A DNA stretch of 64,000 bases, from contig NW_027362767.1 of assembly GCF_046119375.1 (NCBI RefSeq), positions 415,214,001-415,278,000 of the forward strand, given 5' to 3'. A model generated the notes under the pieces. It worked only from the letters and a program-made list of their open reading frames with translations, was not told the origin of the DNA and did no database searches. Source of the stretch: Phyllobates terribilis. Taxonomy: Eukaryota. Positions 38,989-61,068 of the stretch are shown piece by piece. Positions within the stretch are counted from its first letter, which is position 1. Every line of letters begins with the position of its first letter. Both the position numbers and the translations under genes were made by a program.

Positions 38989-41900
38989 TCACATGATATT
39001 TGCATATATCGTATTAAGACTCCTGGAAGCTTTTCTAGAAGGATCCCAGATGATTTCCAGCTCCACATAAGAAACTTCTGTGTCCTAGAAAAATTAGCAC
39101 AATTAAATATCAGTATGTCATTCCCTGTATCTCCAGAAGGGGGCGATGCTGGAGCAGTTGATACTCACTGTCTCCACTTTAGGAATACTTAGGTCGGGGC
39201 CAAGATTTTCTGTGAGCGGGAAGTTGTCTCCTCTCACTCCGTCTGTACAAAGAAAAAAATGGAGGGTTCACATACTTAAAGATCCAAAAAGTCTACCTGT
39301 TCCATTTATTCTGCTACTTTGCTCTTGGAAACAGTCAGCAGTTTGGCTCCCAACCTGACATGTGACTGTTATTTGAGCACCCACAATGCACTGCTCTGAT
39401 ACAACAGGAAACCAGCAGAATTGTGAATGTATCTTAAGCTATAACCAGAGAAGACATCATGTAAGGCGAAACATAGTCACAGAAACTAAGTGAACCCCTT
39501 ATAGGAAATATTTCAGTCTTACCTTTGTGATGTTGATGGGGAACGGATTTTCGTCTTCTAAAAGAAATAAAAAAAAAAAAAAATGTAAAAAAATTCATAA
39601 AATGATGGTTTCAGTATCGGAAAAATAATATTTATTAACCCCTTTTGTGCACTTGCACTTTTTCATTTTTGCTCTCTCGATTTGTTTTTTTCTTTTCTCC
39701 CCCTTCTTCCAAAAGCCATAACTTTATTTATCCATCAACACGAGGGCTTGTTTGTTTTTTTTTGCGGGACGGTCCTTACTAGTTATATGGTTAAAATTAT
39801 GTGCTAAAAAAACGGAAAAAAATCCAAATGGTGTGAAAGGGTGGATAAAAATACATATAGATATATATATTTATATACACACACATTATTTTTTTTCGCC
39901 ACTTTAAAAAAATTCAGAATTTTGAAAAAAATAAAAATGGCAATTCCGACTTTTTGTTTTATTGTTGTTTTTTTTCTCTCTGGCGTTTAACGTATGGTAT
40001 AAATAATTTCTTTGTTAGGTTTCAACTTTTACAGACCAATGCAGCAATACCGGATGTTTATTTTTCAAGCTTCTCGACCCATATGTCATATGAAAGAGGA
40101 CTCCGCGTGTATCGCCACAAGAGTTGGCTTCCTCAGGAGCGATACGCATGGGTCCCTTTTCCCATACAGTGCTTTTTTTATGAGCCAAATTTGCCGGGTG
40201 ACTCTGTGGTTAGCAATCAATCAGTATACAGGTGCTGCCCGCTCCATTGTTTCTTCTATATATTGCAATACTCAAGTTTAAAGTGAAAAATTTACAATTC
40301 CAGGCTTTGCTTCAAAGGAGGACTGAGATGGCAGTGATGGAAGCCTTCAGTAGATCCCTCCTGCTTTCCTCCATGGTAACCCATCTACTACCCTCAGTCT
40401 CATGGTGGGGGGGATGATGAGAGCTGCTGTGCGGGTACACTGGCAACCAATCCTTTTAAGGCCTGTTCACATGCTGCATTTTGGCTTTTGCAGATTTGAA
40501 CCATTTCATATTTTTTTTCTCTGAAATCTGCAGTATGTAAATTCTTTCTGTGTTTTTGCAGCATTTTTCACCCATTTAAATGGATGGGGAAAAATTGCAT
40601 AAAATTGCATCACAAAATGCCGCAAAATTGATCATATTTTATGCAGCACTTTTCCTAACAACGCTCTGGTTTTTGTAGAAGAAAAGTCTCCTGCAAATAC
40701 TAAACATACCCTTAAAGTGGTTGTTCAGGTTTGGCATGAAAGTCTGCAGTCCCTGTGTGAATCCTCACATCGTGCTGTCAGGATTCATTGGTGCCTACGT
40801 CGGGAGCAGGCGGTCACGTGACCCCAGATATGCATACTTTTGGCCACATTCCGACTAGACGTGCGCAGCCTCGCTCAATACAAGTGAATTGTATGAGGCT
40901 GCTCACTTCTAGTCGGAATGTGGCCAGAAGAATGTATGAAACTGGCTGTATGCATGAAACTATCATGAGCTCCCCCCTAGTGGTGGCTGCATGCAGTCAG
41001 AATGATATCATTGATCAATTTCCTTCTTTCTTGCAGAGAGCTCATTTACATACTTTTTTTCCCATAGGGAATTGCCAGAAAAACTCCAGACACATCTGCT
41101 CTTTGTTAAGGGAAGTCAGACAAAGCTAAGAAAACGTCAGAAATGGGATGGGTATCTGTTAAAGAAACAGTTCAATAAATTTTTAAGGAGTTGTCCACTT
41201 CAGGGGACATATTTTTGTTTACTTAAATGCAGCAAGCAGAGATCTAGAGAGACACACGACTCTCTGTATTTCAGACTTATTGATGTCACCCCCTACCTGC
41301 TTCGCTTCCTTATACAGATGCCCGATGTGACCGATATCACGAGGATGAGAAGTAGAAGCGCCGCAGTCGCGATGGTCAGCAGGATTGTGGTGGACACCGC
41401 GGAGGGAGGGACCGAGATTTCGTCTTACATATGAGCAAAGAAACAATTTGTAAATGATGACTGTAATACAGGCCTGAGACTTAGGGGGCAGCACTGGGAC
41501 AAAAGATTACTAGGAAAATAGAGTGTAAGCTCTGCGGGAGAGAAAGGAGGGATATGTGAGAATAGATGAGCTCATACCTCCTATACCAGTCCCACATTCT
41601 TGCCCAGTGCCCACCAGTCTATGCCACCCCCTACCTACCTGCGTCTTCCTTCTTCTCTTCTTCCTGTGCAGGTGCGGGGGGTCCCAGGTAATACTCCTCC
41701 CTGAGTTTGGGGAACTCCCGCACCTTACATCTCCACAGGCCAGTGTGGTTCTTCTTGTTTTCCAATGGGTACAGTATCCTCTGAGCCGATATCTGGCTGA
41801 AGCGGGCGAGTTTTCCATTCCTCGTGAGGGTGAAGGTGAAATTTTGCTGAGGATAAGCTTTCATGTCCAGGCAGAGGAGACACTGCAGGGTGGGGGTCTT

Positions 41901-42169
41901 ATGTCCAATCAGGAAAGACAGAGAGAGGTAAGGAGACGAAGAAAGCAGGCAACCTAAAGAAATGGGAATGGCTGAATTATTCCCTGACAACAAGCAGAGA
42001 TCTTGAACGTATTGAGGCTTAGAAAGTTACAGAATTTGTCATTATACTCTGCTCAGAGCAGCCATTATCAATGTATATATACCGCGCCGTCCACCTCACC
42101 TTCCATGATGCAGGGCACCACAAGGACCAGTGCCAAAATGACCCGAAAATCCATCCCGTCCCGGTTCAT
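38989..42169 (-). CDS. mpig6b: G6b-B-like inhibitory Ig receptor (Ig-TM-ITIM-ITSM), 238 aa
   Basis: Exons 42169-42100 (signal MNRDGMDFRVILALVLVVPCIME), 41953-41639 (Ig, LQC...GLWRC), 41423-41297 (TM, ILLTIATAALLLLILVISV), 39557-39523, 39242-39169 and 39084-38989 (VSYVEL ITIM, TIYANI ITSM). Phases 1,1,2,1,0 are consistent. Convergent with ddah2, as in human. Confidence 0.72.
40456..40715. mobile_element. TTAA-flanked MITE (T2/Kolobok-like), in a mpig6b intron
   Basis: ttaaggcctgttcacatg ... aaacatacccttaa, with imperfect TIRs between TTAA sites. Many similar elements elsewhere are not listed. Confidence 0.4.
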
Positions 42170-42234
42170 CTTTCCCGTCTGTTCTTCAATTTTTCTGTTT
42201 ATTATCATCCATCACTTTGTTTTAGAACCCAACA

Positions 42235-43030
42235 GCCAGTCACTGTGTCTATACCACCTGTGTGCCAGTCACTGTGTCTATACCACCTGTGTGCCAGTCA
42301 CTGTGTCTATACCACCTGTGTGCCGGTCACTGTGTCTATACCACCTGTGTGCCGGTCATTGTGTCTATACCACCTGTGTGCCGGTCACTGTGTCTATACC
42401 ACCTGTGTGCCAGTCACTGTGTCTATACCACCTGTGTGCCAGTCACTGTGTCTATACCACCTGTGTGCCAGTCACTGTGTCTATACCACCTGTGTGCCGG
42501 TCACTGTGTCTATACCACCTGTGCGCCGGTCACTGTGGCTTTACCACCTGTCTGTTAGTCTCTTTATAGCACTTATGTACCAGCTACTAATTCTCTACTA
42601 ACTATAGTTCACAATACTTGTGTGCCAGCCACTGTATTTATGCCACCTGAGCCTTTGTCTCTTTTCTACCTATTTGGACATTACTTTCTACATCTGTCTG
42701 CCAGTCTCTGTGTCTGTACCTTCTGTGTGTCAGTCTCTGTGTCTGTACTTTCTTTGTGCCAGTCTCTGTGTCTGTACTTGCTGTGTGCCAGTCTGTGTCT
42801 GTACCTCCTGTGTGCCAGTCTCTGTGTCTGTACCTCCTGTGTGCTAGTCTCTGTGTCTGTACCTGCTATGTGCCAGTCTCTGTGCCTGTACTTCCTGTGT
42901 GCCAGTCTCTGTGTCTGTACCCCCTGTGTCCCAGTCACTGTGTCTGTACTTCCTGTATGCCAGTCTCTGTGTCTGTACCTCCTGTGTGCCAGTCTCAGTG
43001 TCTGTACCTCCTGTGTGCCAGTCTGTCTGC
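42235..43030. repeat. Two related 29-bp minisatellite arrays upstream of the mpig6b ATG
   Basis: ccagtcactgtgtctataccacctgtgtg (about 10 units, 42235-42550) and ccagtctctgtgtctgtacctcctgtgtg (about 11 units, 42690-43030). Confidence 0.9.
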
Positions 43031-43284
43031 ATATGAGGGGGCCTCAGTGTCAGTCTGTCCACTTCTTTCACTCTAATCAGAAGGAGATGAGGAAGTGAAG
43101 CTTTATCTGCAACAGGCAGACTCCACATGTTATATCCCTCATCTCTGGGGGATGCCAGCCCGGCTATACATGGGTATAAACCAAAAAACAGAGGAAAGAG
43201 CGGAAACATCCAGAATGACTCATCATTACTTCTTATAACAAGAAGATTATCTGTAAACATAGAATAATGCACAGCCACATGTAC

Positions 43285-43450: not shown

Positions 43451-43831
43451 CAGGGGCATGCTCTCCTCCTCCACCACCCTGTGAACATGGAGGGCGTGCC
43501 ACCCATGTTCTCCACGGTAACGGGTGTAGGCTACTCTGTCTCCGGGGTACTTGGCTGCAGCCGGAGCAGAAGCTGCTTGTGGACGGCCAGTGTCAGCGAC
43601 ACCAGAAGTCAGGGGCATGTCCTCCGCGCTTGCCTTCCGCACATCAAGCGCATACCACCCCCTCTTTCCAGAGTATTGTGGTAACCAGGCCGCTCCTGGG
43701 ATGCATGGCATAGACTGTGGCACTATGTGGGCTGCGGCAGCACCAGCTGTTGGAGCTTCGCCTAAGTTGGGCATCTTTCTCCCCCCCTAGTTCACCCTTG
43801 CTGGGGTAGGACTCACCGCTCCAGATGCTTA
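43447..43831 (-). pseudogene. Degraded older cold-shock-domain ORF remnant (element Z), target of the 43832-53360 insertion
   Basis: Encodes SGKRGWYALDVRK and YPGDRVAYTRYRGEHGWHALHVHRV, homologous to YPGDYVTFTHHKGERGWYALQVYRV of the 49016-50290 ORF. The sequence resumes at 53365 after the CTTA TSD. Confidence 0.65.
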
Positions 43832-45632
43832 TGACGCGCCCCCTGGGCCGTGGGGTACTCGGTGCCGGGCCGGTCGTTGCTAGGGGAGATGTCACAGTGG
43901 CGGTGACCCGGTCCGTGACCTAGGGCGGTCAATAAAAGGGGTTATTTACAGGGGATTTATAGTTTTTATATAATGTTCGTGACGCCACCTGTGGTATGCG
44001 GCTATATGGAGCCGCCGCTGCGGAGCAGGTCCTCTGGAGCTGGTGTGAATGCAGCAGAGTTGGTTTAGCGCTCCACGGGTAGAGCTTAGATCCAGGGCAG
44101 TGTAGATGTTGCTGTTATGGTGTAGTGCAGAGGATGGTGCAGATAATGATCACAGAGACAGTAAGGTGCAGTTCTCAGGCTTTACTCACGGTTTCTTAGA
44201 CTTCCAGTTACCAGTACTAGAGTAACTTCCCACGGCGTTCTGTGCTTACTCAGGGAGGGGTTCAGCAAACTCCCAGGTCTCTCTGGAGTACGTAACGGGG
44301 ATTCTTTATGTGTGTTCCTTCTGGTCGTCTCCCTGCACCTCACACCCAGTGTCTCAGGCCAGTGGCCGCGGACCTTGCCGGGCGACGTCTTCTCTGTCCC
44401 CTGGGTCCTCTATGGCCACCTTTCTGGTGATTAGATGTGGCTTGCGGCTGAAGTACCTGAAATACTGCAGCCTCCGGTTTCCTAGTTGAGGCTTAAAGAA
44501 CTCTGCTAGTTTAGGGACCGGTCCCCTCTGTGCGACCTGACCCCTCCACCTCCTGGCAGATTCGGGCGTACGGGTGGCCTCCAGCACTACCCGTACCTCT
44601 GGGGTCCCTTCCACGTTCATGGAGCCTTTCTCCTGCTCCTCTCTTCAGTATTGGGCCTCTCTGGCTAGGCCCTCCTCCTCCTGAGCAGAGCTCCTACAGA
44701 GCTCCTGCTCCCTCTACTTCTCCTCTCAGACTGCTCTGTCCTTTCAAGATGGCTTCTCTATTTATATCACTTCTTTCAATACTCCCCTGATTTACTTCCT
44801 CCACCCACACCCACTACATGGTTCCCATTACTTTGGTTCCCCACACTCCAACCAGGGACAGGACTCAGCAGGAAGCAACGCATCTTGCCCTTCCTGCTGG
44901 TCTGGAGTAGTGTAGTGTTGGATGCAGGTGTTAGGGTCCAGGGCAGTACTCCTTCCTTACCTGAGTGTGAGATACCACACCTCTGGGTGAGATGCAGTAC
45001 CTCTGTTGTGACTGAACCCACAGGGGCGCCACATACCCCCCTGGTAAAACACAGCACGTCCGCGGGCTGGAACAGAGTAAAAACACAGTTTAGAATGCAT
45101 CCACATAGAATATGATAACCAAAACTTTTCTTCCCTTTATGGGAGGCACATTTTCTTAAACGTTACAGGTTTCCTTAGCATATCAAACATTATGAAAGCA
45201 TTTTCAATAACATTCTTCACATATAAAACATTTTTATCACTCTTCAAGTAAGTTCAGCAAACAGATCTGTAACCAGGTGTCCATCTCAGTGGATAAGGTG
45301 CAACATGAACAACATGAGGGACTCGTCCGCAAACCCTCAACGTAGACCCTGGGCGTGGCTACAGGGCATAGATGATCCAGGTGTTGGACCACGTCTTTGG
45401 CCACGCCAAACGGGTTTTTGTTCTGAGGTCAGTCTTGTTGTATAAAACCAATAAGGGGCACTTTAAGAAGTGCAACTATTTACAGTAAAGTTTCTCAGTT
45501 ATTCACCGTCCATAACCTTAATGTCTCTATACCCTTACTTTATGGACATAAAAACAAATAAATTTTTTAAACTTGCAGTGTCTCTGCTGTACCCTTCCGG
45601 GTAACTATATACAGTCCTTTTAAACAAATTGT

Positions 45633-46534
45633 TCAACAGTGGGGCTCCCTCTGGTGGAACTCTTGGTTTCTGCAGGCTGACCCAGCCAGATCATCAGCCT
45701 CGTACTGTGGGGGCATGTCCTTTCTCTCCTTCACCACTCTGTATACCTGGAGGGCATACCACCCGCGCTCTCCCTTGTGGGTAAAGGTGACACGGTCACC
45801 GGGCTAGAGGTCTCGGCCGGGATGCCCATGTTGGAGATGGGGCTCGACGTCCCGCCGATTTACAAAGACGTCCCGATCCGTCTGCGGCTCTCTGACAAAG
45901 CCCCACCCAGCGTCCAGGTCGAACTTCACCACTATCCCCTCCAGACGGGGACTAGGTGTGGTTGATCTCGCCTTGTGGGCCCGGGTTTTGGCTGCCATGT
46001 TCCGGGCCTCCATGTGCTCCCACCACACCTGCCGGTCATGACGCTCCTTCTCCAACTGCAGGAGCTCCCGTCTGCAGTACTCCTCCCTCCTGAGGGCCTG
46101 GGTCTGGGTCTCCCACGGGAACCCCATGAGGTCCCCATCCCGGTTGTCCCACCGAAACTCCTCTCCTCCTAGGCAGGTAACCGGGGGTGCAGGTGTGGGC
46201 GTCAGGGGGAGTCCCTGCTGGTCTTCAAATTTGGCGGACCAGTCGTAGACGGGGCTTCCGTACACCCACTCAGGTGCGGGGGCAGGTGGCTCCGGTAGGG
46301 GGCCTAGGAGTAGGTCGGCGGAGCAGCGTGCCCGGGATTGGAGGCTCTGCCAGGGGGCCCAGGAGCAGGTCAGCACTCTCAGCGCCCGGGACAGGGAGTC
46401 TCCTCTTACCTGCTCCCACAGTGCCTTCCTCTGCCTCATGGCTCTGTTCAGGCTCCTCCGGGGCTGGGGCGCTGCTGGTGGACTGCAGCGCTGGCTGCTG
46501 CCGGGTCACGATCTTCCCCAGCAGCTCCTCCTTC
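45633..46534 (-). pseudogene. Second, 5'-truncated copy of the cold-shock-domain ORF
   Basis: RLEGIVVKFDLDAGWGFVREPQTDRDVFVNRRDVEPHL...GRDL*PGDRVTFTHKGERGWYALQVYRV, with a nonsense codon at 45804 and a frameshift upstream. Confidence 0.85.
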
Positions 46535-47312
46535 TGACGCGCCCCTTGGGCCGTAGGGTACTCGATGCCGGGCCGGTTGTTGCTAGGAGAGATGTCACAG
46601 TGGCGGTGACTCTTCTGTGTGTTCTCCCTCTCTGGCCGTCTCCCTGCACCTCACACCTAGTGTCCCAAACCAGTAACCGCGGGCCTTGTCGGTCGACATC
46701 TGTTCCGTCCCCTGGATCCTCTATGGCTACCTTCTTGGTGAGACTGATATGGACTGTTGGCTGCAGGACTTGAAATACTGCAGCCTCCGGTTTCTAGTTT
46801 GAGACCGGTCCCCTTTGTGCGGCCTGATCCATCCACCTCCTGGTAGATTCGGGCGTACGGGTGGCCTCCAGCACTGCCCGTACCCCTGGGGTCCCTTCCT
46901 CGTTCCTGGAGCCTTCCTTCTGCTCCTCTCCTTCTCAGTCTTGGGTCTTTCTGCTAGGCCCTCCTCCTGAGCAGAGCTCCTGCAGAGCTCCTGCTCCCTC
47001 TACTTCTCACTAACTGAACTGTCTTCTCTGCTTGACCCAAGATGGTTCCCTCTTTTATATCACTTCCTTTCCTGTGCTCCCCTGAACTACATCCTCCACC
47101 CACACCCACTACATGGTTCCACTCTTCAGCTAGGGACCAGGGATTGTGCTCTCCCTTAGGAGCAATATCGCCCTGCCCCCACTGAAGTGGAATGTGTTGG
47201 ATGCAGGTGTTAGGGTCCCGGGCCGTACTCCTTCCTTACCTGAGAGTGAGATACCACACATCTGGGTGAGATGCAGTACCTCTGTGGCGACCGAACCCTC
47301 AGGGGCGCCATA
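46535..47312 (-). mobile_element. Internally deleted LTR of a sister subfamily, between the two CSD ORF copies
   Basis: Same termini (tgacgcgcccc...ggggcgcca) but a diverged internal sequence matching 47327-48465. Confidence 0.8.
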
Positions 47313-47326
47313 TAGTAAAACACAGC

Positions 47327-48465
47327 TGTGGCGCCCCTGAGGGTTCGGTCGCCACAGAGGTACTGCATCTCACCCAGAGGTGTGATATCTCACTCTCAGG
47401 TAAGGAAGGAGTACAGCTCGGGACCCTAACACCTGCATCCAACACATACCCACAGTGGGGGTAGGGCGAGATTGCTCCTAAGGAAGAGCACAGTCCCGGG
47501 TCCCTAGCTGTGGGGACGGACTATGTAGTGGGTGTGGGTGGAGGAAGTAGCTTAGGGGAGCACATGGAAGGAAGGTATAAATAGAGAAGCCATCTTGTTT
47601 AGTGAGTTCAGATCAGATCAGAACAGTGAGAACAGTCTACAGTGAGAGGAGAGGAGGCAGGAAGGGCTCCAGGAACGGAAGAAGGGACCCCAGGGTACGG
47701 GCAGTGCTGGAGGCCACCCGTACCCCTGAATCTACCAGGAGGTGGAGGGGTCAGGCCTCACAAAGGGGACCGGTCCCTCAACTAGCAGAGCACTTTATGT
47801 CTTAACTAGAAACCGGAGGCTGTAGTATTTCAAGTCCTGCAGCCAACAGTCCATATCAGTCTCACCAAGAAGGTAGCTATAGAGGACCCAGGGGACAGAA
47901 CAGACGTCGCCCGACAAGGCCCGCAGGTACCGGATTGGGACACTAGGCATGAGGTGCAGGGAGACGGCCAGAGAGAGGACATAGAAGGGGGTCCTGTTAA
48001 GTACTCCGGAGATATCTGAGGGTGGACTGAACCCCTCCCTGAGTAAGCGCAGCATGACGAGGGAAGTTACATTGGTGCCTGTAACACTGACTGCAATAAC
48101 CGTGAGTAAAGACCCTGAGGACTGCACTTCATTGTCTCAGTGATTATTGCTGCGCCATCAAACCCTGCACTACAACGCCCAGCACAACCTACAACATCTA
48201 CACTGCCCTGGAGCTAAGCTCTACCTGTGGAGAGCCACACCAACCCTGCTGCACTAACAACCGCTCCAGAGGTTCTGCACAGCAGCGGCGGCTCCACATA
48301 GCCGCATACCACAGGTGGCGTCACGAACTTTGTATATAAATCCCCTGTAAATAATCCCCTTTTATTGACCACCCTGGGTCACGGACGGGGTCACCGCCAC
48401 TGTGACATATCCCCCAGGATCTACCGGCCCAGCACTGGGTACCCCACGGCCAAGGGGGTGCATCA
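47327..48465 (+). mobile_element. Solo LTR of the same superfamily, inverted insertion
   Basis: TGTGGCGCC...GCATCA with 4-bp TSD CAGC (47323-47326 and 48466-48469). TATAAATA at 47576. Confidence 0.88.
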
Positions 48466-49015
48466 CAGCACGTCCACGGGCTGGAACAGAGCAAAACATA
48501 TTTTAAAGACATGCAAAATTTTTGAATGCATTCGCATATAAGATTATAAACATAACAGTTCTTCCCTTTATGGGAGGCACATTTCTTGAACGTTACATTT
48601 GTTTTATCAAACATCATAAAAGCACTTTTAATACCATGTTCCTTTTTACATAAAACATTTGTAGCAGGTTACAGTACGGGTGTCCATTCTCTTTAACAAG
48701 GTGCTACTTGGTGAACATGAGGGACCCGCCCGAAAACCCTCAACGTAGGCCCTGGGCGTGGCTGCAGGGCATGGATGATTCCGGTGCTGGACCACATCTT
48801 CGGCCACGCCAAACGGGTTTTTGTTCTGAGGTCAGCTTTGTATGTATAAAACCAATAAGGGGCACTTTAAGAAGTGCAACTATGTACAACGGAAAGTTTT
48901 GGTTATTCACTGTCCATAACCTGACAGTCCTTTTACCTTTACCGGGTATTTATGCAAACACAAACTTTTCAACTTTTTAAACTTGCAGTGTCACTGCTGT
49001 ACCCTTTCCAGGTAA

Positions 49016-50290
49016 CTATAGACAGTTTCTGTAAAACAGACAGTTTAACAGTGGGGCTCCCTCCGGGGGAAACTCCTGGTTTCTACAGGCTGACCCAGCC
49101 GGGTCTTCAGCCTCGTACTGCGGGGGCATGTCTCTCCTCCCCTTCGCCACTCGGTATACCTGGAGGGCATACCACCCGCGCTCGCCCTTGTGGTGGGTAA
49201 ATGTGACATAGTCACCGGGATAAAGGTCTCGGCCGGCGTGCCCCTGTTGGAGGTGGGGCTCTACCTCCCGCCAGTTGACGAACACGTCCCGATCAGTTTG
49301 CGGCTCTCTCACAAAGCCCCACCCACCATCCAGATCAAATTTTACGACTATCCCCTCCAGACGGGGACTTGACGTAGTGGACCTGGCTTTGCGGGCCCAG
49401 ATTTTGGCCACCATGTTCCGGGCCTCCATTTGTTCCCACCGCACCTGCCGGTCATGACGCTCCTTCTCCATCTGCAGGAGCTCCCGTCTACAGTACTCCT
49501 CCCTCCGGAGGGCCTGGGTCTGCGTCTCCCACGGGAACCCCATGAGGTCTCCCTCCCAGTTGTCCCACTGGAACTCCTCTCCCTCCTGGCAGGTAACCAG
49601 GGGTGCAGGTGTCAAAGGGGGTCCTTGCTGGTCTTCATAATTGGCAGACCAGTCGTAGGCGGGGCTTCCATATACCCACTCGGGTGCGGGGGCTGGTGGC
49701 TCCGGTAGGGGGCCCAGGAGCAGGTCGGCGAAGCAGGCGCCTGGGACGGGAGATTCCACCAGGAGACCGGGGAGCAGATCGGCAGAGCAGGCGCCCGGGA
49801 TCAGAGGTTCCGCCAGGGGACCCAGGAGTAGGTCGGTGGAGCAGGCGCCCAGAATGGGAGGTTCTGCCAAGGGACCCAGGAGCAGATTGGCAGAGCAGGC
49901 GCCCGGGATCGGAGGTTCTGCCAGGGAGCCCAGGAGCAGGTCAGCACTCTCAGCGCCCAGGACAGGGAGTCTCTTATTACGTGCTCCCGCGGCCGCGCTT
50001 GTGCCGTCCTTTGCCTCCTGGCTCTGTTCAGGCTCCTCCGGGGCTGGGACGCTGCTGGTGAAGTGCAGCGCTGGCTGCGGCCGGATCACAAGCTTCTCCA
50101 GCAGCTCCTTCTTCCAGCCGGCGATGGCATCCTGCTGGGCCCTATCCATCCTCCGGCCTAGCTCCTGGATTTCAGCCTGGAAGAACTCGGTATCTTCCAG
50201 GGATAGCTCTGCCATTGCCTCTTCCAGGGTGAGAAGCGTTGTTGATCGCTGCAGGCCTTGGACGGGAGCTTGCTCCTGACTCTCCTCCAT
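49016..50290 (-). CDS. Retroelement-encoded protein: coiled coil, Pro-rich 18-aa repeats, cold-shock domain (about 424 aa)
   Basis: Open from MEESQEQ to the stop. C-terminal GIVVKFDLDGGWGFVREPQTDRDVFVN...LYPGDYVTFTHHKGERGWYALQV aligns to a CSD (RNP1 GWGFV, RNP2 VFV), followed by PPQY. Confidence 0.75.
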   Translation of the reverse strand: MEESQEQAPVQGLQRSTTLLTLEEAMAELSLEDTEFFQAEIQELGRRMDRAQQDAIAGWKKELLEKLVIRPQPALHFTSSVPAPEEPEQSQEAKDGTSAAAGARNKRLPVLGAESADLLLGSLAEPPIPGACSANLLLGPLAEPPILGACSTDLLLGPLAEPLIPGACSADLLPGLLVESPVPGACFADLLLGPLPEPPAPAPEWVYGSPAYDWSANYEDQQGPPLTPAPLVTCQEGEEFQWDNWEGDLMGFPWETQTQALRREEYCRRELLQMEKERHDRQVRWEQMEARNMVAKIWARKARSTTSSPRLEGIVVKFDLDGGWGFVREPQTDRDVFVNWREVEPHLQQGHAGRDLYPGDYVTFTHHKGERGWYALQVYRVAKGRRDMPPQYEAEDPAGSACRNQEFPPEGAPLLNCLFYRNCL

Positions 50291-50446
50291 ATCGCCTGCC
50301 AGGTGCGGTCTGTCTAGATTGCTGGAGACCCCACCCTGTCTCCCAGTTTTCTCCTCTCCTCTCCCCTTTCGGGGGCGGTTCCATGGCAGCTTGCTGTCAG
50401 ACACACCTTGGGGCAGCCCCCCCAGCTTTATGGACACATCCACATA

Positions 50447-52076
50447 CAGTACAGACCAAAAGTTTGGACACACCTTCTCATTGAAAGGTTTTTCTGTATT
50501 TTCATGATTATGAAAATTGTACATTCACACTGAATGCATCAAAACTATGAATTAACACATGTGGAATTATATACTTAACAAAAAAGTGTGAAACAACTGA
50601 AAATATGTTTTAGATTCTAGGTTCTTCAAAGTAGCCACCTTTTGCTTTAATGACTGCTTTGCACACTCTTGGCATTCTCTTGATGAGCATCAAGAGGTAG
50701 TCACCGGAAATGGTCTTCCAACAATCTTGAAGGAGTTCCCAGAGATGCTTATCACTTGTTGGCCCTTTTGCCTTCACTCTGCGGTCCAGCTCACCCCAAA
50801 CCATCTCGATTGGGTTCAGGTCTGGTGACTGTGGAGGCCAGGTCATCTGGGGTAGCACCCCATCAATTTCCTTCTTGGTCAAATAGCCCTTACACAGCCT
50901 GGAGGTGTGTTTGGGGTCATTGTCCTGTTGAAAAATAAATGATGGTGCAACTAAACGCAAACCGGATGGAATAGCATGCCGCTGCAAGATGCTGTGGTAG
51001 TCATGCTGGTTCAGTATGCCTTCAATTTTGAATAAATCCCAAATAGAGTCACCAGCAAAGCACCCCCACACCATCACACCTCCTCCTCCATGCTTCACGG
51101 TGGGAACCAGGCATGTAGGGTCCATCCGTTCACCTTTTCTGTTTCGCACAAAGACACGGTGGTTGGAACCAAAGATCTCAAACTTGGACTCATCAGACCA
51201 AAGCACAGATTTCCACTGGTCTAATGTCCATTCCTTGTGTTCTTTAGCCTAAACAAGTCTCTTCTGCTTGTTGCCTGTCCTTAGCAGTGGTTTCCTAGCA
51301 GCTATTTTACCATAAAGACCTGCTGCACAAAGTCTCCTCTTAACAATTGTTGAAGAGATGTGTCTGCTGCTAGAACTCTGTGTGGCATTGACCTGGTCTC
51401 TAATCTGAGCTGCTGTTAACCTGCGATTTCTGAGGCTGGTGACTCGGATAAACTTATCCTCAGAAGCAGAAGTGACTCTTGGTCTTCCTTTCCTTGGGCA
51501 GTCCTCATATGAGCCAGTTTCTTTGTAGCGCTTGATGGTTTTTGCAACTGCACTTGGGGACGCTTTCAAAGTTTTCCCAATTTTTCGGACTGACTGACCT
51601 TCATTTCTTAAAATAATGATGGCCACTCGTTTTTCTTTACTTAGCTGATTTTTTCTTGCAATAATACAAATTCTAACAGTCTATTCAGTAGGACTATCAG
51701 CTGTGTATCCACCAGACTTTTGCACAACACAACTGATGGTCCCAACCCCATTTATAATGCAAGAAATCCCACTTATTAAACCTGACAGGGCACACCTGTG
51801 AAGTGAAAACCATTTCCGGTGACAATCTCTTGAAGCTCATCAAGAGAATGCCAAGAGTGTGCAAAGCAGTCATCAAAGCAAAAGGTGGCTACTTTGAAGA
51901 ACCTAGAATATAAGACATATTTTCAGTTGTTTCACACTTTTTTGTTAAGTATATAATTCCACATGTGTTAATTCATAGTTTTGATGCCTTCAGTGTGAAT
52001 GTACAATTTTCATAGTCATGAAAATACAGAAAAATCTTTAAATGAGAAGGTGTGTCCAAACTTTTGGTCTGTACTG
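50447..52076 (-). mobile_element. Near-intact Tc1 (DD34E) transposon with long TIRs, inserted in the LTR element leader
   Basis: TA TSD and about 270-bp TIRs starting cagtacagaccaaaagtttggacac. The transposase at 51626-50610 is in one frame with a single stop at 51249 ([23 protein letters not shown]). Confidence 0.92.
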
Positions 52077-52268
52077 TACATGGTCACTGCTGCTCGGGGC
52101 AGGCCTCTCTTTTGGCGCCATTCTGGAACCCGGCCCATGATGGGAGGTGGTTTCTTGTTGTCTTTGGTCTAGCACATAATGGCGCCCGTTCTTCTGGGGC
52201 GGGTGCCACATTCAGTATAGAACACAGTCTCTAGGCGCACAATACCCGGTGATAACGGGTGGGTTCAT

Positions 52269-52286
52269 ATCCTGTTCGTGACGCCA
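52269..52286 (-). promoter_or_regulatory. Primer-binding site complementary to tRNA-Ser(CGA)
   Basis: TGGCGTCACGAACAGGAT, a few bp after the 5' LTR, is complementary to the tRNA 3' end ...ATCCTGTTCGTGACG-CCA (recalled as vertebrate Ser-CGA). Confidence 0.75.
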
Positions 52287-53499
52287 AAGTTGACCCGCCC
52301 CCTGGGCCGTGGGGTACCCGGTGCCGGGCTATATGGAGCCGCCGCTGCGATGCAGGTCCTCTGAAGCTGGTGTGAATGCAGCAGAGTTGGTTTAGCTCTC
52401 CACAGGTAGAGCTTAGCTCCAGGGCAGTGTAGATGTTGCTGTTATGGTGTAGTGCAGAGGATTGCGCAGATAATGATCACAGAGACAGTGAGGTGCAGTC
52501 CTCAGGCTTTACTCACGGTTTCTTAGACTTCCAGTTACCAGTACTAGAGTAACTTCCCACGTCGTTCTGTGCTTACTCAGGGAGGGGTTCAGCAAACTCC
52601 CAGGTCTCTCCGGAGTATGTAACGGGACCCCCTTCTGTGTGTTCCTTCTGGCCATCTCCCTGCACCTCACACCCAGTGTCTCAGGCCAGTGGCCGCGGAC
52701 CTTGCCAGGCGACGACTTCTCTGTCCCATGGGTCCTCTATGGCCACCTTTCTGGTGATTAGATGTGGCTTGCGGCTGCAGTACCTGAAATACTGCAGCCT
52801 CCGGTTTCCTAGTTGAGGCTTAAACAACTCTGCTAGTTTAGGGACTGATCCCCTCTGTGCGACCTGACCCCTCCACCTCCTGGCAGATTCGGGCGTACGG
52901 GTGGCCTCCAGCACTACCCGTACCCCTGGGGTCCCTTCCATGTTCCTGGAGCCTTTCTCCTGCTCCTCTCTTCAGTCTTGGGCCTCTCTGGCTAGGCCCT
53001 CCTCCTTCTGAGCAGAGCTCCTACCGAGTACTTGCTCCCTCTACTTCTCCTCTCAGACTGCTTTGTCCTTTCAAGATGGCTTCTCTATTTATATCACTTC
53101 TTTCAATGCTCCCCTGATTTACTTCCTCCACCCACACCCACTACATGGTTCCCCCTACTTTGGTTCCCCCCACTCCAACCAGGGACAGGACTCAGCAGGA
53201 AGCAACGCATCTTACCCTTCCTGCTGGTCTGGAGCAGTGTAGTGTTGGATGCAGGTGTTAGGGTCCCGAGCAGTACTCCTTCCTTACCTGAGAGTGAGAT
53301 ACCACACCTCTGGATGAGATGCAGTACCTCTGTGGCGACTGAACCCGCAGGGGCGCCACACTTACTGTATGTTGTCGCTCCTTGCACAGCCTGTCACCGA
53401 GACTGCAGGTCTCTGTACAGCTGCACTCTTGCTGCACAGCTTCTCCCACTGGTGTTGTATTCACAGAGGTGTAGGTCCACTGGAGCTGATGGTGACGCC

Positions 53500-54539
53500 G
53501 CAGAGTTGGTTCAGCTCTCCACGGGCAGGGCTAAGCTCCAGGGCATTATATGATGAATTGTGTTGGTAGATGTTGCTGGTGCTGTGTAGTGCAGGGCTGG
53601 TAATGGTGCAGCAATTATTAAAGGACACAGTGGGGTGCAGTCTTCAGGTTTTACTCACAGTTGTTCAAGACTTCAGGTTACAGTTACCGGTGTGTAACCG
53701 CCCATGTCGTCCTGTGTCCTCCGGGGTAGGGGTCCAGCAAACCCTCAGGTATCTCAGGAGCACTTGCACGGGACCCCGTTCTATGTACCTTTCCTGGCCG
53801 TCTCACTGCGCTGGCTCTCGCCCTCCTGCCCTGCGCCTCACAATCAGTGTCCCAAGCCAGTGGCCTTGGACCTTGTTGGGCGACGTGCTCTCAGTCCCCT
53901 GGATGCTATGCGGCCACCTTTTCGGTGATGTAATTGTGGATTTTGGCTGCAACACCTTGAAAATGCAGCAGCCGCCGGTTGTCTAGCTGAGCCTGGTTGT
54001 TCTCCACTAGTTTTGGGGCCGGTCCCCTTCTGCGGCCTGATCCCTCCATGTCAGCGTGGATTCGGGCGCACAGGTGGCATCCGCACTCACCGTGCCCCTG
54101 GGATCCCCTCTGTCTTTCTCTTGGAGCCCTTCTCACTGCTCCTCTCTTCTTTCTTTCCTTCTCCTGGGCCTCTCTCACTGGGCCCAACTCCTCTCTCAAC
54201 TCCCTTGAGCAGAGCTCCTCCTGAGCTCCTGCTCTGAACTCTCACTCTGACTGAACTCTCTCTAGAACCTTCTACCATCTCTTTTATACTGCTATGCTCT
54301 GTGCTCCATTGAACTGCTTCCTCCAAACCACCTCCTCTACCTAGTTCCACCCTTCAGCTAGGAACCAGGGACTGTGCTCTTCCTTAGGAGCAATCTTGCC
54401 CTTCCCTATTGAAGTGGAGTGTATTGGATGTGGGTGTGTGGGTCCCGGGTAGTACTCCTTCCTTACCCGAGAGTGGGGTACCACACCTCTGGGTGAGATG
54501 CAGTACCTCTGTGGCAACTGGATCTGCAGGGGCGCCACA
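53500..54539 (-). mobile_element. Older LTR of a third subfamily (5' part of element Z)
   Basis: Ends in ggggcgccaca and shares the gagatgcagtacctctgtggc and gggtcc...agtactccttccttacc blocks with the other LTRs, but is more diverged. Confidence 0.7.
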
Positions 54540-56376
54540 TATATGCTGCCTCCCCCCCTCAATCCATGTATATATGCTGCCTCCCCCCACCAATCTATGT
54601 GTATATGCTGCCTCTCCCCCACAAATCCATGTATATATGCTGCCTCCCCCCACCAATCTATGTGTATATGCTGCCTCCCCCCCCCAATCTATGTATATAT
54701 GCTTCCTTCCCCCCTCAATCCATGTATATATGCTGCCTTCCGCCCCCAATCCATGTGTATATGCTGCCACCCCTCAATTCATGTGTATATGCTGCCTCCC
54801 CAATCCATGTATATATGCTGCCCTCCCCCAATCCATGTATATATGCTGCCCTCCTCCAATCCATGTGTATATGCTGCCTTCCGCCCCCCCCAATCCATGT
54901 GTATGTGATGCCTTCCCCCCTCAATCCATGTATATATGCTGCCTTCCACCCCATTCCATGTATAAATGCTGCCTTCCCCCAATCTATGTATATATGCTGC
55001 CCTCCCCATCAATCCATGTATATATGCTTCCTTACCCCCTCAATCCATGTATATATGTTGCCTTCCCTCCCTCAATCCATGTATATATACTGCCCCCCCA
55101 ATCCATGTATATATGCAGCCTGCCCCTCCAATCGATGTATATATGCTGCCCTCCTCAATCCATGTATATATGCTGCTTTCCCCCCAATCCATGTATATAT
55201 GCTGCCTTTCCTCCCCTTAATCCATGTATATATGCTGACTTCCCCCCACCAATCCATGTATATATGCTGCCTTCTGCCCCCCCAGTCCATGAATATATGC
55301 TGCCTTCCGCCCCCCATCCATGTATATATGCTGCCTTCCGCCCCCCCATCCATGTATATATGCTGCCTCCCCCCCAGTCCATGTATAGGTGCTGCCTCCC
55401 CCCCAATCCATGTATATATACTGCCTTCTGCCGCCCCCAGTCTATGTATATATGCTGCCTCCCCCCCAATCCAAGTGTATATGCTGCCTTCCGCCCCCAC
55501 CAGTCCATGTATATATGCTGCCTTCCGCCCCCCCATCCATGTATATATGCTGCCTCCCCCCAGTCCATGTATAGGTGCTGCCTCCCCCCCAATCCATGTA
55601 TATATACTGCCTTCCGCCCGCCCCCAGTCCATGTATATATGCTGCCTCCCCCCCAATCCATGTATATATGCTGCCTTCTACCCCCACCAGTCCATGTATA
55701 TATGCTGCCTTCCGCCCCCCCATCCATGTATATATGCTGCCTCCCCCCCAGTCCATGTATATGTGCTGCTTCCCCGCAATCCATGTATGTATGCTGCCTT
55801 GCCCCCCTCAATCCATGTATATATGCTGCCTTCCACCCCCAATCCATGTATATATGCTGCCTTTCCCCCCTCAATCCATGTATATATGCTGCCTCCCCCA
55901 ATCCATGTACATATGCTGCCTTCCGCCCCCCCCAATCCATGTATATATGCTGCCCCCCCAATCCATGTATATATGCTGCCCCCCTCAATTCATGTGTATA
56001 TACTGCCTTTCTCCCTCAATCCATGTATATATGCTGCCTCCCCCCCAATCCATGTATATATGCTGCCCTCCCCAATCCATGTATATATGCTGCCTCCCCC
56101 CCAATCCATGTATATATGCTTCCCTCCACAATCCTTGTATATATGCTGCCTCCCCCCCAATCCATGTATATATGCTGCCCTCCCCAATCCATGTATATAT
56201 GCTGCCTTCCCCCCAATCCATGGATATATGCTGCCTTCCCCCCCAATCCATGTATATATGCTGACTTCCACCTCCCCCAATCCATGTATATATGCTGCCC
56301 TCCTCCAATCCATGTATATATGCTGCCTCCCCCCCAGTCCATGTATATGTGCTGCCTCCCCCAATCCATGTATATG
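54540..56376. repeat. About 1.8-kb minisatellite with 25-30-bp units
   Basis: Unit ccaatccatgtatatatgctgcctccc with variable C-tracts. Confidence 0.95.
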
Positions 56377-58520
56377 TGTCACCCAGGGGGATATAGGAGA
56401 CTCGGTACCCGGGCCCTTTTCCTTGTTTAGGAGGTCACGGCAGTCGGCTCCCGGGCCCGTACTCTCGGTCTCTCTTTAAAAAGGGGTTTTAGTGTATAGT
56501 TTGTCTCGTGACGCCACCTGTGGTTTCCGTTAATGGTTACCGGCGCTGCTGCAGACCTCCGGGGGGTGATGGGATGGCAGCTGGGATGTTTCTGCTCCCC
56601 ACAGGCGGAGCGGGCCCCCGGGGCAGTGTAGGTGCAAATGGTGGTGATGCTGGGGCTTGCAGTGCAGGAGAGATGGCGCAGCAGGAGTAACTGACAGAGA
56701 CAGGGGATTCACTTCAGTACCTTTACTGGTGCGGATGTCAGGTACGGTCCAGGGTACTCAGTAGGAAGGGTGCACTTCAGGACTTCTCCCCAGTGAGCGG
56801 GTATAAGGCCTCCTGGTTTCTTGAGACTGTTGCGGTTGTCTTACCTCCATCCTTACTAATCAGGCAGGTTTTACTGTTGTCAAATCTGGAGTTTAGCACA
56901 GTGTAGGGCTCTCTTTCCCACTGGTCATCGAGCTTGTGACCTCTTCTTTTCCGCTTTAGCACTATCTCTCCAGGTGCCAAGGGTTCTGCTGGTGCATGTT
57001 TTTTATACTGCTTTACCTGTCTTTCCCTCAACTTGTTTAGTCTGTCTTCGACACAGGCCTGTACCTTCCTGTACTGCTCTTGCCGACTTGTGTCCCAATC
57101 TTCAGTGGACGTACCTGCAGCAGGTTCTACCACTCCGTGCTCCAGGTCCATGGGCAATTTTCCAGGTCTTGCTCTCATGAGGTACGCTGGGGTACAGTTT
57201 GTAGAACTCATGGGTATGTGGTTATACAGGTCCACTAGGTCAGGTAGCTTTTCTGGCCACTGGTTCCTTTCTTCCAAGGGTAGGGTTTTCAACAGGTCTA
57301 TAACGATGTTGTTCATTTTCTCGCACATGCCGTTGGTTTGCGGATGATATGGCGTTGTTCGGATCTTCTTGCATCCATACAGGTGGCAGAATTCCTTGAA
57401 TAGCTCAGCTTTGAAAGCAGGACCTTGATCTGTGAGCACCTTTTCCGGATATCCATGGGGCCTGCAGAAGTAGACTTGGAACGTTCTTGCCGCAGTTTCT
57501 GCTGTCAGGTCCTTGACAGGGGCTACCACCAGGAACCGGGAATAGTGATCCACCATGGTCAGGGCATAGGAGTAGCCTGATCTGCTGGGTGACAGTTTGA
57601 CGTGATCTAGAGCGACAATCTCCAGGGGTTGGGTTGTTTTGATGGACTGCAAGGGTGTTTTCTGGCTGCCGTAGTCTTTTCTTCTAAGGCTACAGGGCCC
57701 ACAATTCCGGCACCACCTCTCTATGGAACTCCGCATTCCAACCCAATAGAATCGGTCCTTCAACAAGGTTTCCAGCTTCTTCCAGCCAAAGTGACCTGCT
57801 TGGTCGTGGTAGGCCTCTAACACCATCTGGATATCCATCCTTGGTACAACAATCTGCCTCACCAATACATGGTCTTGGGATTGACATACCTTCTGCACAG
57901 CTTCTCTCTGTAGATGAACAGCTGGCTTCTCTCATTCCACAGGTTTTTAACTTGTGGGGGAGCATCCTTCTCCAGGTGAGAACCTTCTTGGGTTATCAGT
58001 CTTTTGATGAGGCTGACAACCGGGTCACTGTCCTGGGTCTCCTTCCAGCTGTGATGAGGTAGAGGGTTTGGCGTCCTACCATGACATCTTCTGGAGGCGT
58101 GTTGCTCGTGGACCACTCCGCTTCTGTGGAAGGCAGGTAATTCAACTTCTTCTAGGTTATCCACTTCATCCTCGGTGTCTGACTGGTGGGGCATCCTTGA
58201 CAGGACATCGGCATTGGTGTTCTTGTGACCTGCCTGGTACTTGATTGTGAATTGATAATTCGACAACCTAGCCACCCAACGCTGTTCCATGGCTCCCAAC
58301 CTGGCTGTCTCCAGGTGTGTCAAGCGATTATTGTCGGTAAAGGCTGTGAATTTAGTTGAGGCTAGGTAATGCTTGAATCTTTCGGTGATAGCCCAGACCA
58401 AGGCCAGGAACTCCAGCTTGAAGGAACTGTAATTCTCAGGGTTCCTCTCAGTAGGGCGAAGCTTCCTACTGGCATACGCAATTACCTTTTCTCTGCCATT
58501 TTGCTTCTGGTACAACACAG

Positions 58521-61068
58521 TGTTAGAACCCTCCTGTTAGTTTTTTCTATCTTGTGTTTTGCGGTCACGTGACCATCTGCCTATATATTCCAGCTCCGCC
58601 CTTCTGGCTTTGCTGCACTTCAGTGTTGTTTGACTGTTTTGCTAGCCTGGTGCTTCGGTGCCTATCTCTGTCAGTTTGCTTGGTCCTCTGGGACCTCTAG
58701 TACGTTTTGTAAGTTTGTCTTCTTCTACAACAATTTCTGTTTAGGAGGTGTCCCATTTTTGTCCCAGTCCTTAGTTCTTTTAGGGACCCCTCCCTTTATT
58801 CTATAGGTCTTCGTTCAGACTAGCCAAGGACGAAGGCGGGTCTGTTCACTAGGAACAGGCAGCCCGCTACATCGTAGGGATTCAGATTAGTCTTACTGTA
58901 GGGACAGCTTTCCCCTATCTTTCCTTAGTACTTGTTGCAGATCAAAACAGTAAGTCCAGCCCAAAAAACTTAAGGGAAGAAATTCGGGGATCAGTATGGT
59001 TTCCGTCCAGGATTTGGTTCAATGCCTGCAGGGATTGTCTCTGGAGGTGGCCGAGCTTCAGCAACACGTGAGTGACGCGCCCAGGGGATGGGGACGACTC
59101 GGCGCCCAGGCCTTGTTGTTGGTTTTGGGGGATGCCACGGTGGCCGGTTCCCGGGCCGTACCCTGGGGTCACTCTTAAAAAGGGAAGGAATGATGGGGGA
59201 AAGGTGTATGGGATAGGGAAAGTCCGTAACTCCACCTGTGGTGTCTGGTGAGGATCACCAGCGCTGCTAAAGTCCTCTGAGGCCGGTGGTCAGGCAGCTT
59301 AGTTGGTGCGACTCCCAACAGGTGGAGTGGGGCCTCAGGGCAGCGTAGAAGGGATGCAGGACAGAGGGGACCCAGCCGGGTCAGAGGAAGAATAGGCACA
59401 CTCACAACAGTTCACTTCACTACCTTTACTGGTGGTGTTTCAGGCACGATCCAGGCCACTGTAGGGTGAAGGTGCATATCGGGACTCTCCCCAGTGAGCG
59501 GGTGTGGGGCCTCCTGTTTCTTGCCTTTTCCTGATAAGTTTATGACCTGCCTGAAGCTAGGCCTAACTTGGTCTCTGTCTTGCATCGGCTGACCTGGTGG
59601 TAGGGCCTTCTGTTGGAGATCACACTCCCTGGTCTCTTGGGCCTCAGTGACTCCTGACCCTGGTATGACAGTCAGCTTTTGGTGTTCCTGGGACATATAG
59701 TTCACCAGGGGTTCCGGTAGTTTCTGCTGGTCGTAGAGATCCCTGCAGACACGAACCCGGTGTCCGTTATATGAACTTGGGGTGAGCTGGCTAAGCTCCT
59801 CTGCCCCCTATGTAGCTCGCTTACTCAACTTGCCTTTGGCCGTGCTCGGGGCCCTCACTAGGCTTCACACTGGCAGTAGGCCTCGCTACTCTTCACCACT
59901 CTTACGGCGTCGGCACGCCTTGGGCTCACTAACTGAGCTCTCTGAGTCTGTACTGACCTGAATACCTCTCTGGCTGCAGCAGACTGTAGACTGCATACTC
60001 CAGGCTGTAGATTCCAGACTAGACTCTCACCCAGACTGAACTGCCTAGCTCCACCTTCCCTTTTTATATCCCTATCCGGGCTCCCTCTGGTGGTCTGAGG
60101 TGGAAGGTGGAGGTGTGTGAATGCTAAGAGGGCCTCTTGTGGAGGAATCCGTCCATGCACCCCTCTAGGATCTGTAGCACCAATGCGCAGCAGGGCGCCA
60201 CATGAGTAGATGTCCTGGAGCGCATTTTGTCGAACCCAAGGTAGGACTGCCTGATGTTTTTTATGGTAAACAGCAAGATTTTTTTTCCTTTAAAAATGCT
60301 TGTTTGTTATATTTTCGTTTGAGACCAAGATCCTCTGGGAATGAATCACAGCGCATTGGTTTTATTATGTCACTTTTGCGCAAAGAACCACAGGGTTGGG
60401 CCTTTTCTCTCCAGCCTAATGATCCGTGTTTAAGTTCTGTGGAAGAATTTTTTTCTGCTATGGGGCTACTATATGACGATCCTGATCGAATCTCATCTGC
60501 TGAATCAGAACTTAGACGTTTGAATCAGGGGTCATATGATGTCTCTGCTCCTAGGCTTGTTAAAGCTTTCCACAGGAGGTTTCCGGATAGGCCAGGGCCT
60601 GGAGGATCCGGAGGATCCTCATAAAAGAGGGGTACTGTTAGAACCCTCCTGTTAGTTTTTTCTATCTTGTGTTTTGCGGTCACGTGACCATCTGCCTATA
60701 TATTCCAGCTCCGCCCTTCTGGCTTTGCTGGACTTCAGTGTTGTTTGACTCTTTTGCTAGCCTGGTGCTTCGGTGCCTATCTCTGTCAGTTTGCTTGGTC
60801 CTCTGGGACCTCTAGTACTTTTTGTCACTTTGTCTTTTGTGTTCTACAACAATTTCTGTTTAGGAGGTGTCCCATTTTTGTCCCAGTCCTTAGTTCTTTC
60901 AGGGACCCCTCCCTTTATTCTATAGGTCTTCGTTCAGACTAGCCGAGGACGAAGGCTGGTCTGTTCACTAGGAACAGGCAGTCCGCTACATCGTAGGGAT
61001 TCAGCTTAGTCTTACTGTAGGGACAGCTTTCCCCTATCTTTCCTTAGTACTTGTTGCAGATCATAACA
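58521..61068 (+). mobile_element. Sushi-type chromovirus deletion derivative nested in the Gypsy RNase H region
   Basis: LTRs 58521-58949 and 60636-61068, with 5-bp TSD CACAG. Gag MVSVQDLVQCLQGLSLEVAEL...EPKVGLPDVFYG is fused to the integrase/chromodomain tail APRLVKAFHRRFPDRP. PPT aaagaggggtac. Confidence 0.88.
59073..60202 (-). mobile_element. Solo LTR nested in the chromovirus gag
   Basis: tgacgcgccc...gggcgccaca with 4-bp TSD TGAG (59069-59072 and 60203-60206). The gag frame rejoins across the insertion. Confidence 0.88.

Follow-up and report, generated by a model that had tools for sequence, protein, structure and literature searches.

Can a long terminal repeat (LTR) retroelement that has neither gag nor pol keep a gene of its own, and what would such a gene do for it? 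The question is raised by a 64,000-nucleotide stretch of the genome of the frog Phyllobates terribilis (RefSeq assembly GCF_046119375.1, contig NW_027362767.1, positions 415,214,001 to 415,278,000), hereafter the window, whose own numbering we use. A first-pass annotation, made from the letters alone, had read the block at 43832-53360 as an LTR insertion whose only gene encodes a cold-shock domain (CSD) protein. Our analysis supports assigning the block to a Gypsy-related, non-autonomous LTR family that keeps a CSD gene.

The block is a single insertion, read on the minus strand. A CTTA target-site duplication (TSD) lies on both sides and, in 5/5 other copies of the repeat that received the insertion, the two flanks adjoin each other; two independent LTR insertions are therefore ruled out. 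The outer LTRs are 95.0% identical over 1070 aligned bases (Kimura two-parameter distance 0.051), with 132 bases of U5 missing from the 5′ LTR. Over 18 nt, the primer binding site (PBS) matches the 3′ end, with CCA added, of a tRNA-Ser(CGA) gene in this genome (locus L306). This was the one locus positive in ARAGORN among six fetched from 20 pattern matches; four others end in CCA like element junctions. A G-rich polypurine tract (PPT) abuts the 3′ LTR. Thus the insertion, its LTR pair and TSD, the PBS and the PPT all stand as first annotated.

The open reading frame (ORF) at 50290-49016 encodes a CSD, as had been proposed. PF00313 matches aa 312-380 (E 1.8e-7, 31.3 bits against a cut-off of 27) and exceeds the cut-off in 7/8 other long frames of the family. 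From an alignment of 31 copies, AlphaFold2 predicts a long helix and a five-strand barrel (mean predicted local distance difference test score 74), for which Foldseek gives CspA, YBX2 and YBX1 as best matches; the loop is Y-box-like in length. The full-length model adds a helix at aa 31-68, a disordered Pro-rich linker and a helix at aa 257-302. Hence the Pro-rich repeats first noted ahead of the CSD are present, as 54-bp repeats in the linker, and the N-terminal coiled coil is seen only as a predicted long helix. The RNP1/RNP2 aromatics W324 and F337 are invariant in the 31 copies and F326 is kept. After the CSD, the window protein has a 44-residue tail, and family proteins end ~35-45 residues past the domain; the basic/acidic repeats of the Y-box C-terminal domain, as set out in the available text of PMC6040738, do not follow the CSD in the window copy. 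A homodimer prediction for aa 236-390 scored 0.01 against a mark of 0.32. No Pfam gag family was detected in the window ORF or in eight long frames, and tblastn found no match in 20 gag-pol loci; a remote gag origin of the N-terminal helix is possible. A word-index protein search with the whole ORF gave no matches, whereas the full HMMER library did. The ESM Atlas returned only bacterial cold-shock clusters, under 0.9, which we take as a lead only.

The family plan is LTR, tRNA-Ser PBS, leader, CSD ORF, 3′ untranslated region (3′UTR) and LTR, ~4.6 kb in all, with 4-bp TSDs. In this 10.6-Gb genome the C-terminal half of the ORF yields 40,117 first-look candidates, a figure that is not a copy number. 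The order LTR-leader-ORF-3′UTR-LTR was found in 24/29 top non-self loci; 20 of these 29 come from a single duplicated cluster, and 19 of the first 30 hits were dropped as its members before the tree and codon model, L007 being kept. Relatives P0002 and P0003, used as queries, brought in more subfamilies with the same plan at 45-65% identity. Among 40 ten-kb loci picked by protein across subfamilies, 36 have an LTR pair, and 15 have both ends with a perfect 4-bp TSD, spanning 4.4-5.1 kb with LTR identities of 87-99%. Gag or pol lies between the LTRs in 0/40 of these loci; matches occur in 9/40, all outside the LTR pair, and as a control the same queries match 30/30 pol loci. Exact matches to PBS plus leader number at least 469 for the window's type alone. 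From the first 100 listed of these we took every fifth (n = 20), a sample that avoids picking by protein score: 18/20 run on into the ORF, 12/20 reach the CSD and 0/20 enter gag, and a perfect 4-bp TSD is present in 5/6 with both ends called. Linker length varies greatly among copies, and many young copies have open frames of 710-820 codons. Element copies make up 20 of the top 30 loci with CSD matches in this genome.

Two groups of copies deserve separate mention. About twenty near-identical copies, spaced 60-130 kb apart at C3:689.8-691.7 Mb, C721 and C2211, probably stem from one large duplication, tandem or segmental. Within the window's lineage there is also a very young subfamily (L324-L329, L337), whose dozens of equal-scoring copies have open frames of 710-816 codons; it resembles the public protein model P0001.

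The CSD is under strong purifying selection. On leader-picked copies the ratio of non-synonymous to synonymous change (dN/dS) is 0.10 in frame versus 1.47 and 2.67 off frame, with 0.24-0.29 for the helices, 0.69 for the linker and 0.6-1.2 for the UTRs and LTR; that is, the CSD and both helices are selected and the linker is near neutral. CpG decay was rejected as the source of the low ratio, since the value is still 0.10 without CpG codons, and so was bias from picking by protein score, since the leader-picked copies repeat the result. A codon model of 62 mostly protein-picked copies gave 0.16, with synonymous sites saturated between distant subfamilies. All of these ratios are descriptive because pairs are not independent. 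We also considered an upstream start, since in many copies the frame extends into the leader without a stop. However, the 147 bases before the ATG have a dN/dS of 0.72, and in the first part of the leader all three positions are conserved. We therefore retain 50290 as the start codon and regard the leader as an RNA signal. The part adjoining the PBS is the best-conserved non-coding stretch.

We then asked how these elements relate to those that do encode gag and pol, reading the best-scoring or first-listed gag-pol copies of this genome. The CSD protein was found at 0/30 integrase 3′ ends and in 0/20 ten-kb loci of a gag-pol family, here family A (14 of which overlap the 30). Likewise, among 20 loci read for 10 kb downstream of a PBS, none of the 18 with gag-pol carries the CSD as its own ORF; two of the 18 hold CSD-ORF sequence, in each case within a nested element that has an LTR or PBS of its own. 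In each subfamily, and in a second LTR lineage described below, the CSD ORF follows directly on the leader, in the place that gag would take. The cis signals are shared. The LTR end plus PBS occurs exactly 1933 times (control 0), and the first 30 occurrences lead to gag of two families (13), to CSD-ORF sequence (12) or to neither (5: two with an interrupted CSD-type leader, three with a family-A leader without an ORF). The window element has ~50-65 bases of leader in common with both gag-pol families, A and B (72-81%), ~270 bases of 3′UTR with family A and one family-B copy (76-79%), and 280-370 bases of U5 with family B (80-88%). For CSD subfamilies with the other tRNA-Ser PBS there are gag-pol elements whose leaders match theirs (L192, L196). 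The gag-pol families that share these signals have the order protease, reverse transcriptase (RT), RNase H, integrase, with a dUTPase-like stretch after the protease; the CSD element itself is without pol. A 13-nt second PBS-like stretch in U5, common to the LTRs of the CSD passengers and of their putative gag-pol helpers, may mark an older LTR end.

Hybrids between the two kinds of element also exist. Locus L231 joins a family-A leader to a CSD tail. The recipient of the window insertion is itself a multi-copy family, with a CSD-type LTR and 3′UTR and a frame of 112 codons in which two CSD tails follow a gag-like start. This frame was seen in 150/150 scored matches, and its gag start has a weak DNA match to family B (69%, in 1/5 copies). 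Such hybrids, together with the shared signals, fit co-packaging and template switching without proving them.

Taken together, the 0/40 loci with gag or pol inside, the shared cis signals and the selection on the CSD bear out the first-pass view of a non-autonomous Gypsy-related family, and none of the three outcomes that it had listed as contrary (no CSD; the ORF as ORF3 of gag-pol elements; independent LTRs) occurred. Its candidate helper at 56-63 kb fared less well. The relatedness of the LTRs is confined to the termini and ~130-190 bases of U5 at ~70%, the element is a broken copy, its family A is one of several gag-pol families with the same PBS, and family B is closer in U5. In the copy itself (56379-63335) the dUTPase-like stretch lies between protease and RT, a deletion has removed sequence from the end of integrase into U5, and further insertions are nested at 58521-61068.

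A HMMER search over 1.84 billion proteins gave 83 matches. The five best (P0001-P0005) and P0055 come from Phyllobates, Ranitomeya and Anomaloglossus, and P0040 comes from Bufo; the relatives in other frogs are known here as protein models only. P0001 closely resembles the young subfamily of this genome. With P0040 as query, we recovered from this genome a second element of ~4.6 kb with an unrelated 1.03-kb LTR, the other type of tRNA-Ser PBS and one long CSD frame. Across its 17 loci (L285, L287-L301, L303; e.g. L298:2751-7389) a flanking repeat is present in 16, at 94-99.9% identity, and no gag or pol lies between the repeats. Its CSD has a dN/dS of 0.23 in frame and 1.5-1.8 off frame, and there are 553 exact LTR-PBS junctions; no helper for it was found. 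In a tree, a branch with support 85/87 (75 columns) separates all 26 frog element-type CSDs from the CSDE1-like and microbial rows; CSDE1 was thereby rejected as donor. P0040 can be aligned to YBX2/YBX1 without a gap, scoring 35-38 bits, whereas CspA scores 26. The likeliest origin would be a single old capture from a Y-box gene.

Several other CSD sequences were encountered on the way. Three more kinds of CSD without introns, related to those of the elements, lie at L284:4826-5608, L286:4636-6186, L302 and L320; at L284, L286 and L302 no pair of LTRs was called on the flanks. At L310-L315 (C1:734.44 Mb) there is an intronless, partly duplicated retrocopy that, from its sequence pattern, we take to be like CSDE1 (UNR), and L330 looks like a decayed Y-box pseudogene. 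Two public gene models, P0090 and P0091, fuse an element CSD to other domains, one under the name R3H and coiled-coil domain-containing protein 1; these are probably annotation artefacts or cases of exonisation.

How does this family compare with known systems? Non-autonomous LTR elements have been taken as non-coding or gag-only. TRIM, LARD, Cassandra, Helenus and Ajax elements encode no protein, whereas the frog family keeps a selected ORF, which places it outside that non-coding definition. The Xenopus elements 1A11 and Xretpos carry gag only. Soybean SNARE is said to be an autonomous/non-autonomous pair with LTR swapping, among plant Copia elements and without a CSD gene; frog passengers similarly share and exchange terminal signals with their helpers. 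The frog CSD resembles YBX1/YBX2 (FRGY2) in fold and loop length, and these are the best solved-structure matches for both the family profile and the Bufo relative. It differs from them in its ~27-30% identity, a changed RNA-binding face, a position near the C-terminus after two helices, the lack of a long C-terminal domain and of introns, and its multi-copy state. With TRIM, LARD and the like (listed in PMC10886601), the family has in common the LTR, PBS, PPT and TSD, the lack of gag and pol, and probably mobilisation in trans. One conserved ORF behind a leader, without pol, is also found in BHIKHARI (part of PMC13269885), MaLR, plant TR-GAG and the two Xenopus elements (named in PMC3337140). 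These keep gag, whereas the frog ORF has no match to Pfam gag or helper gag and the part of it that folds is a CSD of host type. Host coding sequence inside an LTR element is likewise known from maize Bs1 and others that have transduced host genes (passages of PMC7264820); in contrast, the frog capture is old, extends over many subfamilies and two LTR backbones, and is under purifying selection at the level of the element.

A close precedent is in birds, where the available text of He et al. 2025 (PMC12287698) describes 46 endogenous retroviruses (ERVs), identified by RT, that carry a PF00313 CSD of cellular origin from several captures, convergent and possibly adaptive. As in the frog family, an LTR retroelement holds a cellular PF00313 domain. 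The bird elements, as presented there, are retroviruses to which a CSD has been added, at positions that vary, whereas the frog family is Gypsy-related, lacks gag, pol and env, and has the CSD protein as its only gene. Moreover, it goes beyond the bird case in copy number, at least hundreds per subfamily, and in that selection has been measured. CSD capture as such is thus in print for birds, and the novelty of the frog family lies in the gag-pol-less, CSD-only plan, of which the first-pass annotation knew no vertebrate example: we found no account of it in the literature, including the available portions of the frog repeat papers PMC12822217 and PMC6278860, in searches that lay outside Repbase, Dfam and most subscription journals and that also missed PMC12287698. 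A host-derived gene kept by a passenger at a dN/dS near 0.1 implies that an element without enzymes can still gain from a protein of its own. As the second vertebrate case of CSD capture by LTR elements after the bird ERVs, the family suggests a recurring benefit, and it makes testable how the RNA of a passenger gets packaged in competition with that of its helper and how it withstands surveillance in the germline. There is also a consequence for annotation, in that some element copies are annotated as host genes and pol-based surveys of frog repeats would miss CSD-only elements.

What, therefore, might the protein do? We favour the reading, at a rough probability of 0.55 and from sequence evidence, that the CSD protein binds the very RNA from which it is translated, helping that RNA to survive or to be loaded into helper particles. 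The LTR transcript of the CSD element would be translated; the CSD would bind single-stranded RNA, with a preference for the mRNA that encoded it; the helices would contact a partner, either helper Gag or the protein itself; and helper RT would prime on tRNA-Ser before helper integrase inserted the copy. A preference for the encoding mRNA is proposed because selection on a dispersed, multi-copy gene is most easily explained by a benefit to the encoding copy. That host YB-1 supports the production of human immunodeficiency virus, murine leukaemia virus and mouse mammary tumour virus through RNA (passages of PMC6040738) is an argument for an action on element RNA. More tentatively, hyloid frogs may host a class of satellite retroelements, without gag and pol and on at least two unrelated LTR backbones, whose sole product would be a captured, Y-box-derived RNA-binding protein that loads the RNA of these elements into helper Gypsy capsids, with PBS, leader and U5 swapped from helper to helper.

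Several observations weigh against this reading or parts of it. Derivatives with a truncated CSD also spread, which suggests that the protein is dispensable in cis or partly shared in trans. In CspA and YBX1, the beta-1 Trp and the RNP2 His stack on RNA; relative to these, the element CSD has Lys and Asn/Thr, respectively, and with two canonical stacking residues replaced its ligand may differ. A stop is present in the examined region of 23/62 copies, so most copies decay after insertion and the selection signal reflects the replicating lineages. U3 and R of the window LTR match neither family A nor B nor any other gag-pol family found, and the exact helper is thus only a candidate. As for descent, support for the CSD branch is modest, from few columns and with no intact Y-box row; the lead of Y-box over CspA is small for the window lineage (27.5 versus 24.9 bits, family profile), and CspA comes first when the single window sequence is used. 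Oocyte-type masking would be less likely than a role in cis on the element's own RNA, because the long Y-box C-terminal tail is absent and the two stacking residues are replaced.

The alternative that survives best, though we consider it unlikely, is an accessory or counter-defence role in trans. The protein would protect retroelement RNA in general, that of helpers and passengers alike, against silencing or decay in the germline, and would be under selection because source copies and their offspring share the cells in which the source is active. The amplification of CSD-truncated derivatives, with the gag-start/CSD-tail frame in every scored match, speaks for such sharing, as do the repeated captures by bird ERVs, read as adaptive in the text available from PMC12287698, and the abundance of Gypsy RNA in poison-frog ova (part of PMC6278860). 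However, selection persists over many subfamilies with saturated synonymous sites, where free riders would be expected to erode a shared good, and no gag-pol copy examined has taken up the intact gene.

It is quite improbable that the family is instead the deleted remnant of an autonomous Gypsy element with the CSD as an extra gene, its parent lying in unsampled copies or other frogs and the CSD-only form being secondary. Plant LTR elements commonly hold additional ORFs after pol, ahead of the 3′ LTR (passages of PMC11963269 and PMC7264820), the 3′UTR is partly common with family A, and our gag-pol copies were the best-scoring or first-listed of one genome. Nevertheless, the three samples of gag-pol loci hold no such ORF, and the CSD frame occupies the place of gag in every subfamily and in the second lineage.

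More doubtful again is selection on the frog rather than the element, with the copies co-opted as a multi-copy family of RNA-binding genes that possibly masks maternal mRNA. Public gene models exist for copies in four frog genera, long open frames are frequent among young copies, and the zebrafish BHIKHARI Gag offers a precedent (part of PMC13269885). Against this, the copies are dispersed and often broken, selection is seen between subfamilies, which is where selection during transposition would be expected to show, and the short tail after the CSD is without the Y-box repeats. Lastly, an inert protein, whose frame would serve only to stabilise the RNA by the length over which it is translated, would agree with the near-neutral linker of variable length and is largely refuted by the CSD ratio of 0.10 and by barrel residues conserved over copies ~45% identical.

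The window block itself is more complex than an ordinary copy. Once the Tc1 transposon, the inverted solo LTR and the middle LTR are taken out, ~3.7 kb are left, because two copies of the ORF and 3′UTR are present, the second of them broken (45034-46534). The ~2.2-kb internal region with one ORF given by the first-pass annotation is thus wrong for the window and right for ordinary family copies elsewhere in the genome. Compared with 25 other copies, the outer LTRs, the first part of the leader and the broken ORF track one set (L103: 93-95%), and the open ORF from its first codons, its 3′UTR and the middle LTR track another (L102, L108: 87-95%). Given this tracking, and since the CA end of the middle LTR falls exactly inside the broken ORF, the block reads as a composite of two family members, copy B having inserted into the ORF of copy A (Table 1). 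A later crossover in the leader would have taken out the 5′ LTR of B.

Table 1. Features of the insertion and its recipient in window coordinates, with parts assigned to copies A and B according to the composite reading.
Feature	Positions	Strand	Basis
Recipient element of the insertion	43451..43827, leader and LTR continuing at 53365-54541	-	
Left TSD, CTTA	43828..43831	.	Sequence; flanks contiguous in other copies of the recipient element
3′ LTR of copy A, TG..CA in element sense; TATAAA at 44766, AGTAAA at 44186	43832..45033	-	
Second PBS-like stretch in U5, 13 nt, right after CCACAGG	43975..43987	-	
PPT and 3′UTR of copy A	45034..45640	-	
Broken CSD ORF of copy A, from about codon 60, with frameshift and stop	45640..46534	-	
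3′ LTR of nested copy B, internal deletion, 77% to outer LTRs; CA end joined into ORF of A	46535..47310	-	
Solo LTR of the same group, opposite orientation, TSD CAGC, within 3′UTR of B	47327..48465	+	
3′UTR of copy B, continuing at 47311-47326	48466..49015	-	
424-codon ORF of copy B: helix, Pro-rich linker with 54-bp repeats, helix, CSD, short tail	49016..50290	-	
Cold-shock domain, aa 312-380	49151..49357	-	Pfam, fold, selection
Charged helix ahead of CSD, aa 257-302, selected	49385..49522	-	
N-terminal helix, aa 31-68, selected	50087..50200	-	
5′ leader, ~350 bases, split by Tc1	50291..52268	-	
Tc1/mariner DNA transposon, inserted at TA in the leader	50447..52076	-	Terminal inverted repeats, DDE_3, ends
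PBS for tRNA-Ser(CGA)	52269..52286	-	
5′ LTR of copy A, 132-base U5 deletion	52291..53360	-	
Right TSD, CTTA	53361..53364	.	Sequence

Elsewhere in the window, exon-like stretches on the minus strand at 41300-42150, next to the insertion, may belong to a host membrane-protein gene. Two minisatellite arrays lie at 42127-43092 and 54540-56378, and an element with 879-base inverted repeats occupies 2119-5072.

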